Assembly (NCBI RefSeq): GCF_024700885.2
Contig: NZ_CP117016.1
Direction: 5' to 3' (one strand)
Origin: Escherichia coli
Lineage (GTDB): Bacteria; Pseudomonadota; Gammaproteobacteria; Enterobacterales; Enterobacteriaceae
DNA: 64,000 nucleotides
Below are positions 60,713-61,404 of the stretch, in pieces (position 1 is the first letter of the stretch; every line of letters begins with the position of its first letter). The position numbers and the translations under genes were made by a program. The notes under the pieces were generated by a model, which searched no databases, was not told where the DNA came from, and saw only the letters and a list, made by a program, of their open reading frames with translations.

Positions 60713-60817
60713 GGATATTTATCAGGATTTATCGGTTTCTGAACCCTGGATATGTTTATCTGTCCCGGCCTGTTGAATCAGGCGGGGAAAAGGTAAAGAC
60801 AATCAAGAGGATTATTT

Positions 60818-61090
60818 ATGGACAATAGCACCATTTCTCTACAGGAGTTGCTCGACTGCATTTCCAGGCTTCGGGATGATGTAAATGCCCTCACTGTTGC
60901 ATTTTCACATCTGGCCTTATCAATTCCCAGGGAGCAAATGCTGCCAACGCTGGCATCCATTCATTTTGAATCACGCAACCCCAAATGGTCCCAGGAACAA
61001 CAAAATTCTTTCAAGTGGCTGGCGGCATTGCTGGAAGAAAATTATGCTGGCAAAACTACCATTTCGGCGGAGTCTTCAGGGAACCAGTAA
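60818..61090 (+). CDS. Hypothetical protein, opposite strand to the late operon
   Basis: 90-aa track ORF whose 3' end overlaps the 3' end of the 61056..61400 gene by about 35 bp; no family recognised. Confidence 0.35.
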   Translation: MDNSTISLQELLDCISRLRDDVNALTVAFSHLALSIPREQMLPTLASIHFESRNPKWSQEQQNSFKWLAALLEENYAGKTTISAESSGNQ

Positions 61091-61400
61091 TCCTTCCCGG
61101 TAGCTTTCCTTTGTAGGTTATCCATACATTCTGCGCCTCTAAAATTACGGGGCGCTTTTCCGGCGACTGCTCATCCCCTTCACATAACCCGGCAGCGACA
61201 TCCAGGAAGACCTGTCTGATGCTCCTTCTGGCCGCTGCCTCATAAAACTCCAGCGCAGCACCTTCAACACGGTCCAGCGAGATGTCCAGGTCAAAAATTT
61301 CACCGTCAAAGCGTTCTTTGTCCTGTAATGCTAAAGTTACCGTAACTTTATTCTCAAAATTGCGGATCCCTTTCACAATCAGTTCATAGTTTTGAGTCAT
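61056..61400 (-). CDS. Hypothetical phage protein between holin and endolysin (possibly DUF1327 / YdfR-like)
   Basis: 114-aa ORF tightly coupled downstream of the holin; family assignment is from memory of Qin ydfR and is uncertain. Confidence 0.55.
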   Translation of the reverse strand: MTQNYELIVKGIRNFENKVTVTLALQDKERFDGEIFDLDISLDRVEGAALEFYEAAARRSIRQVFLDVAAGLCEGDEQSPEKRPVILEAQNVWITYKGKLPGRITGSLKTPPKW

Positions 61401-61404
61401 TGAA

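Follow-up and report, generated by a model that had tools for sequence, protein, structure and literature searches.

In a lambdoid prophage of Escherichia coli, the holin and endolysin genes are separated by a small gene, orf90, that is read against the surrounding late genes and that, with a probability of roughly 60%, we consider to be an autonomous cargo gene of the moron type, lodged antisense inside the Q-dependent late lysis operon in a noncontiguous operon layout. The window, that is, the whole stretch of 64,000 nucleotides of contig NZ_CP117016.1 that was analyzed, contains at 59.4-61.7 kb a complete lysis cassette on the minus strand, and the interval 60713..61404, which extends exactly from the holin to the endolysin start at 60712 (-), accommodates both orf90 and a 114-codon gene, ydfR. 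An earlier note on this DNA had taken the two ORFs for a gene pair inserted together and had proposed for them either an antisense control of lysis timing or a small cargo function. The cargo alternative emerges as the best reading, the ORF being real and conserved, whereas lysis timing finds no support as the primary role, with selection acting on the protein in contexts that lack lysis genes and the overlapping tail being non-conserved and predicted to be disordered.

The lysis cassette and its ydfR gene

Read along the minus strand, the order of transcription is holin, ydfR, a 343-nt stretch devoid of minus-strand genes, lysozyme and Rz/Rz1, and most of the 343-nt stretch is occupied by orf90 on the plus strand (Table 1). 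The ORF list bears out the coordinates, strands and lengths of both ORFs and the 35-bp overlap of their 3' ends that had been described, and RefSeq has the same two CDSs, which in identical DNA (UTI89, MLI114 and others) are annotated as WP_000193259.1, "YdfR family protein", and WP_001351274.1, "hypothetical protein"; the cassette DNA is 99.9-100% identical in UTI89, IHE3034, NU14, MLI114 and further genomes. The tight coupling to the holin is likewise apparent, with 4 nt between the holin stop and the ydfR ATG and the ydfR Shine-Dalgarno sequence, GGGGAGAG, within the last holin codons. By analogy with lambdoid phages in general, the holin, ydfR, R and Rz/Rz1 would be expected to form one Q-dependent transcript. 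In the lysozyme, inspection of the sequence reveals an N-terminal Gly/Ala-rich hydrophobic, signal-anchor-like stretch and an E-8x-D-5x-T motif.

Table 1. Features of the lysis cassette around orf90; positions are those of the window.
Feature	Position	Strand	Basis
Class II (S21-like) holin, 71 aa, dual-start MDQM motif	61405..61620	-	PHROG holin families phrog_9876 and phrog_20; RefSeq "class II holin family protein"
ydfR, 114 aa, DUF1327, late-operon accessory gene	61056..61400	-	Pfam PF07041, phrog_406, RefSeq "YdfR family protein"
orf90, 90 aa, stand-alone small gene	60818..61090	+	phrog_2411, WP_001351274.1, homologues
Convergent coding overlap, 35 bp	61056..61090	both	Last 11 codons and stop of orf90 against last 11 codons and stop of ydfR
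Variable (mosaic) segment	60769..61060		BLASTN break points, annotations, GC content
Shine-Dalgarno AAGAGG, 7 nt 5' of the orf90 ATG	60805..60810	+	Read from the sequence
105-bp spacer between the divergent starts of R and orf90	60713..60817	+	Only by-eye candidate promoters within
Terminator-like hairpin GCGCCUC-9 nt-GGGGCGC, then UUUU	61133..61159	+	Fold; inside the ydfR coding sequence
SAR-type lysozyme (rrrQ-like endolysin), 177 aa	60179..60712	-	phrog_7 endolysin, E 4e-62; RefSeq "rrrQ: lysozyme"
Rz spanin with embedded Rz1 lipoprotein, cassette end	Rz 59416..59880, Rz1 59478..59660	-	ORFs; RefSeq "lysis protein"

The suggestion that the 114-aa protein belongs to the YdfR/DUF1327 family proved correct: residues 1-112 align with positions 1-92 of the 93-position Pfam model PF07041 (E 7.7e-44), and phrog_406 is covered at 1-114 of 114. 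Its gene lies between holin and lysozyme and on the same strand, as ydfR does in Qin-type cassettes, and matching places in K-12-like strains are annotated ydfR. With the YdfR of the K-12 Qin prophage it shares both the full-length match to the family model and the location, flanked by a class II holin and an rrrQ-type lysozyme. It differs in length (114 aa here, 103 aa in K-12), and in the window the inserted segment described below contributes its final 2 codons and its stop. In this family, a conserved core of ~112 aa that ends in ...GSLKTPP is followed by a variable C-terminus, of 2-4 residues here and in phage 733R4, ~100 in PhiR5_1 and ~155 in Stx2 phage 86. The gene evolves with a dN/dS of 0.38 and its DNA is found in 4348 of the 5426 complete E. 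coli genomes (80%), at 8606 places and up to 10 places per genome, so that ydfR is found very commonly in holin-lysozyme cassettes and is not peculiar to this locus. The only relevant finding in the literature on DUF1327 is that K-12 YdfR binds RNase E, in its catalytic half, and that RNA co-purifies with YdfR (PMC13232886).

Several other features of this part of the prophage deserve mention. The 300-nt gap between the endolysin and Rz (59881-60178, -) contains a strong terminator-like hairpin with 13 pairs (60056-60088) along with an ORF of 57 aa (59882-60055) that includes a hydrophobic segment, and represents a second variable slot of the cassette, which harbors ant or other genes in other phages. 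Between Rz and the terminase, a plus-strand YnfO/YlcI-family gene and a DUF1398 gene (58408-59108) make up another opposite-strand insertion in the late region. Just upstream of the holin, and again opposite to the late genes, lies an IraM-like anti-adaptor gene (62370-62705, +), and after it a sequence that strongly matches the sRNA family STnc100 (132 bits, E 6e-30; 62731-62920, -), both being further cargo in the region between Q and S; in the orf90/ydfR region, the search for known RNA families found none. Two tRNA genes, annotated as tRNA-Arg and tRNA-Ile in the identical DNA of MLI114, are located upstream of the lysis cassette (63620-63693 and 63803-63875, -); tRNA genes are typical of the Q-S regions of lambdoid phages.

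orf90 is a protein-coding gene

Comparison with its relatives, close and distant, shows that orf90 truly codes for a protein and belongs to a small family of the Enterobacterales. The product matches PHROG 2411 end to end (1-90 of 90, E 5.5e-55) and is 89-90 aa long in 79 of the 80 IMG/VR loci compared, which are the best 80 tblastn hits and hence a sample biased towards intact copies; variants of 82-88 aa with in-frame indels also occur. The Shine-Dalgarno sequence of orf90 is strong, and a purine-rich one is kept upstream of the gene in the variants. The earlier note had named a lack of conservation of the ORF in related prophages with the 114-aa gene among the findings that would speak against its proposal, but orf90 is kept wherever this 114-aa form of ydfR occurs.

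Within the cassette lineage, the dN/dS of orf90 is 0.26, and it is 0.15-0.34 in comparisons with 70-75% identical copies. Among the close relatives, neither dN/dS nor codon-position periodicity separates orf90 from the wobble-matched frame of the minus strand, which has a dN/dS of 0.22 and is open in 11 of the 17 close variants, with stops in the remaining 6, and substitutions that tell the two frames apart are evenly split (7 versus 8). These figures, together with the presence in other phages of longer YdfR forms (183-296 aa) that run through the same position, are what could be adduced for the view that orf90 is not a gene at all, being instead a shadow ORF opposite the decayed C-terminal extension of a longer YdfR or of some other minus-strand gene. 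The question of the frame is settled by the diverged copies, the remote protein homologues and the confident AlphaFold model. In two copies with 70-75% DNA identity, one next to iha (L088) and the other denoted L089, orf90 is intact (90 and 89 aa) and keeps its start codon, with a purine-rich GAGGAG in L088, whereas the minus frame is broken by stops in both copies as well as in the window itself, is Cys/Ser-rich and has no conserved start. Moreover, the minus frame differs from that of ydfR, and below the ydfR stop the minus strand continues none of the long YdfR C-termini, to which its sequence is unrelated; thus, a truncated long YdfR was rejected as a candidate. The amino-acid changes confined to the plus frame are all conservative (S/N, R/K, D/E, M/I), and distant homologues of the protein, down to 25-43% identity and in unrelated DNA contexts, preserve the pattern ELL..I..LR..VN.L..AFSYLAFS...E.....AL.FES.N. 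We therefore give the shadow-ORF interpretation hardly any credence and regard it as essentially refuted.

Taken together, the alignments and the structure model lead us to conclude that orf90 encodes a real, soluble, acidic protein of 10 kDa (10.1 kDa, pI 4.95). The AF2 model, built with the family sequences (pLDDT 82.6), features three predicted helices, at 8-35, 38-52 and 59-77, and a disordered tail at 81-90. The family is small, with 19 representatives retrieved in an exhaustive profile search of 1.84 billion representatives. Searches of Pfam, NCBIfam, PADLOC, PDB sequences and PDB/AFDB folds yielded no informative match, the top AFDB hit being a 63%-identical relative, UniProt A0A0D8W7H7 ("Ybl58"), and the identifiers WP_001351274, Ybl58 and PHROG 2411 appear in no paper found by literature search. 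At E<=1, neither Orf90 nor YdfR matched a catalogued defense family of PADLOC-DB v2 (2023 release, presumably not covering Tai, which was published in 2024). A lead to IraP/IraM, which came from a non-significant fold hit (E 2.3), was discarded at hhalign probabilities of 0.3% for IraP and 0.2% for the IraM-like gene of the window.

A mosaic insertion between ydfR and the endolysin

When aligned with sister phages in which ydfR adjoins R, the orf90 segment is seen to be an insertion with sharp mosaic borders. In phage 733R4, which has the same holin and has ydfR without orf90, 19 bp stand in place of 60769..61060 of the window, and BLASTN finds the flanks to be 97% identical from 61061 on, in ydfR, and 85% identical up to 60768, on the R side; Stx2 phage 86 and PhiR5_1 carry other cassettes at this place. 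The GC content of the segment, 45.5%, is lower than that of R (53.4%) and of the holin (54.2%), a modest difference; ydfR itself is at 48.4%.

The border of the insertion falls just inside the end of ydfR, and the same alignments show that the 35-bp overlap arises because orf90 runs past this border, through conserved sequence at the end of ydfR, up to a stop. This read-through tail is wholly different in L088 and L089 and, in the model of Orf90, has a pLDDT below 50, which is to say that it is predicted to be disordered. Because the tail is neither conserved nor, by prediction, structured, the overlap looks incidental, a by-product of the junction.

The slot between ydfR and R was also compared across phages (window 60769-61060; L004:2095-2113, L005:2158-3036 and L006:2158-2731), and accommodates three unrelated families of opposite-strand ORFs, phrog_2411, phrog_2572 and phrog_1853, each accompanied by a different C-terminal extension of YdfR (2, ~100 or ~155 residues), one phage having no slot ORF at all. 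In E. coli, phrog_2572 is present in 314 genomes and phrog_1853 in 95, both alongside a longer YdfR. Homology among the slot ORFs orf90, orf86 and orf104 was considered and rejected, BLASTP finding none and the ORFs belonging to different PHROGs. In phiSTEC1575-Stx2k (L103, 1285-3303), a class II holin, ydfR and orf90 come first, then a further holin pair and, replacing the lysozyme, an M15 metallopeptidase; this cassette thus combines two holin systems, with orf90 linked to ydfR and not to R.

Putative expression signals of orf90

No plus-strand gene is found for 1.7 kb upstream of orf90, so that any expression of orf90 requires a promoter in the 105-bp spacer. A scan for sigma-70 consensus promoters returned none upstream of orf90 or of its homologues in four other loci; by eye, two weak candidates can be discerned, TTTATC (60728-33)-17-TATGTT (60751-56) and TTGAAT (60773-78)-19-GACAAT (60798-803). 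All orf90-bearing variants and L088 share the TATGTT block, which reads CAGGTT in 733R4, the phage without orf90; this pattern is no more than suggestive with regard to TTTATC-17-TATGTT as a candidate promoter.

The hairpin 3' of orf90, with a 7-bp GC-rich stem located 43 nt beyond the stop, falls below the threshold of the terminator scan and is followed by only four U. It is kept in all ydfR variants, but the same nucleotides are constrained by the amino acids of YdfR (EKRPVILEAQ) and, consequently, their conservation is not independent evidence, with the exception of L088, where ydfR has decayed and the loop and flanks have diverged, yet the stem is retained and even better paired, with 9 perfect pairs. 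A role as the orf90 terminator fits this single case.

From these elements, a tentative scheme can be drawn up. orf90 would be transcribed from its own promoter in the spacer, with the transcript ending at the hairpin inside ydfR; if phi80 taiEcA is a guide, it would be made in the lysogen, independently of the lytic programme, and after induction would be damped by the strong antiterminated late transcription across the gene. A soluble, acidic three-helix protein without enzyme-like features, Orf90 might act by binding another protein.

Distribution of orf90 and its relatives

orf90 DNA was detected in 1220 of 5426 complete E. coli genomes (22%), at 1353 places, compared with only 3 of 50,697 deposited phage genomes, among which 370 records match the holin-ydfR-R region; orf90 may, then, occur mainly in prophages that are resident and possibly defective. 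Its homologues extend well beyond the lysis cassette. An intact homologue adjoins iha in 60 genomes, and in the copy denoted L088, the fragment corresponds to the window from 60690 to ~61160, comprising spacer, ORF and hairpin, with ydfR reduced to a decayed remnant. Intact homologues are likewise found on 73 plasmids, 71 of these typed as conjugative, and in the one plasmid copy examined, pBCE049-1, the gene lies 3' of an autotransporter gene. Other intact homologues are located between the tail genes L and M (gpL/gpM), after a gpI-like gene, near the terminase, and at chromosomal sites such as dinI-bssS. In all phage contexts found, the orf90 family gene is opposite to the surrounding late genes.

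Comparison of these contexts shows that the orf90 family moves independently of ydfR and the lysis genes, and the notion of a gene pair inserted together finds no support. ydfR is present in 4348 of the 5426 genomes against 1220 for the ORF, 733R4 has the former without the latter, and, conversely, homologues of the ORF are intact where there is no functional ydfR and outside any lysis cassette.

Convergence with a small opposite-strand gene is seen again in four loci with distant orf90 homologues, L093:4001-4476, L099:456-869, L102:115-604 and L097:821-1325, the partners being 71, 60, 77 and 85 aa long. The genes overlap in three of the four loci and are separated by a 61-bp gap in L102; L093, L099 and L102 are in phage tail clusters, and L097 is a short contig that starts with a membrane-protein gene. 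In three of the four partners, the C-terminal end recalls that of YdfR, with the motif I-x-G-[DS]-L-x-K-x-P, a similarity that is not significant; in comparisons with YdfR and with each other, the best pairwise E values were 0.08-0.36, none of the partners belongs to a PHROG family, and homology of the partner genes to YdfR was accordingly not accepted.

Moron, module or antisense brake

Morons, such as bor and lom of lambda and gp15 of HK97, are autonomous genes inserted between genes of late operons. orf90 has in common with them the presence or absence among close relatives, the sharp borders, the site between two late genes and a GC content below that of the flanks; its orientation and location would imply expression signals of its own, and the same family recurs at several phage positions and in other mobile elements. 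It differs in its product, which is predicted to be soluble, acidic and helical instead of being a protein of the membrane or surface. Judging from other morons, the most likely class of role for Orf90 is a benefit to the host or the exclusion of phages.

The gene layout has close counterparts in the noncontiguous operons of phi80 (taiEcA/atiEcA; PMC11364771) and Staphylococcus aureus phage 80alpha (tha/ith; PMC11087260), in which, as in the window, a gene is nested against a long phage operon: the holin, ydfR, R and Rz/Rz1 are on the minus strand, and orf90 lies between them on the plus strand. The likeness to phi80, one of layout, extends to the interruption of a Q-controlled late operon by the nested gene; taiEcA, which runs antisense within the Q operon, is active in the lysogen, and its expression declines once Q is on (PMC11364771). 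The products are dissimilar, TaiEcA being a protein of 26 kDa and Tha a HEPN RNase, compared with the 10-kDa Orf90, which has no PADLOC hit.

These published precedents also invite the idea that orf90 and its late-strand neighbor, YdfR in the window, are the two genes of one module, a lysogen-expressed effector and a late-expressed antagonist or target, in the manner of Tai/Ati or Tha/Ith. The convergent layout with a small late-strand gene at unrelated positions, the resemblance of three of the partners' C-termini to that of YdfR, the association of each YdfR C-terminal form with its own opposite-strand ORF family in the ydfR-R slot, and the retention of orf90 together with ydfR in phiSTEC1575-Stx2k, although R was replaced, are all in keeping with this idea. 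However, linkage of neighbors within a mosaic module is to be expected without any functional tie, the partners are not significantly similar to YdfR or to each other, ~84% of the ydfR places have no orf90, and the homologues at dinI-bssS, on plasmids and beside iha, where ydfR is a decayed remnant, are intact although they have no late-strand partner. On balance, such a module appears unlikely. A more specific version, in which the orf90 family would be the lysogen-expressed half of a new small defense/counter-defense or effector/antagonist pair, and the late-strand convergent neighbor (YdfR here, the 60-85-aa genes in the tail clusters and L097) the lytic-cycle antagonist, strikes us as quite improbable; if true, the ydfR-R slot would be a hot spot in which different YdfR C-terminal domains are matched to different antisense partners.

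Alternatively, the function might reside in the RNA, with plus-strand transcription through 60.8-61.2 kb acting as an antisense brake on the late lysis transcript, with ydfR and R downstream, and thereby tuning the timing of lysis, the ORF being secondary. The position of orf90 is conducive to this: the gene is antisense within the S-ydfR-R-Rz transcript, between holin and endolysin, and its own transcript would be complementary to 270 nt or more of the late mRNA and, should it terminate at the hairpin, to ~70-100 nt at the 3' end of ydfR. Reciprocal interference by antisense genes has also been described in noncontiguous operons (PMC11087260, PMC11364771). What has been conserved, though, is the protein (motifs at 25-43% identity, low dN/dS), also in loci that lack lysis genes; the part of Orf90 that overlaps ydfR is the least conserved; and most holin-ydfR-R cassettes work without orf90. 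Furthermore, a typical moron promoter is far weaker than late transcription modified by Q, and interference would be expected mainly in the other direction, TaiEcA falling with Q (PMC11364771). We consider a primary function of this kind highly unlikely; an antisense effect on lysis is possible as a side effect of orf90. The reading that best accommodates all these observations remains that of an autonomous cargo gene.

Implications

orf90 is, thus, a bona fide cargo gene in an architecture that is already known, and its general importance is modest, the lysis-regulation reading lacking positive support. Nevertheless, roughly every fifth complete E. coli genome has the gene, among them UPEC/APEC lineages such as UTI89, and it is also present on conjugative plasmids and in the iha island; the junction between ydfR and the endolysin is a recurrent insertion slot for at least three unrelated families of antisense ORFs. 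orf90 is a clean, small candidate member of the growing class of prophage cargo genes that lie antisense in late operons, several of which have proved to be defense systems.
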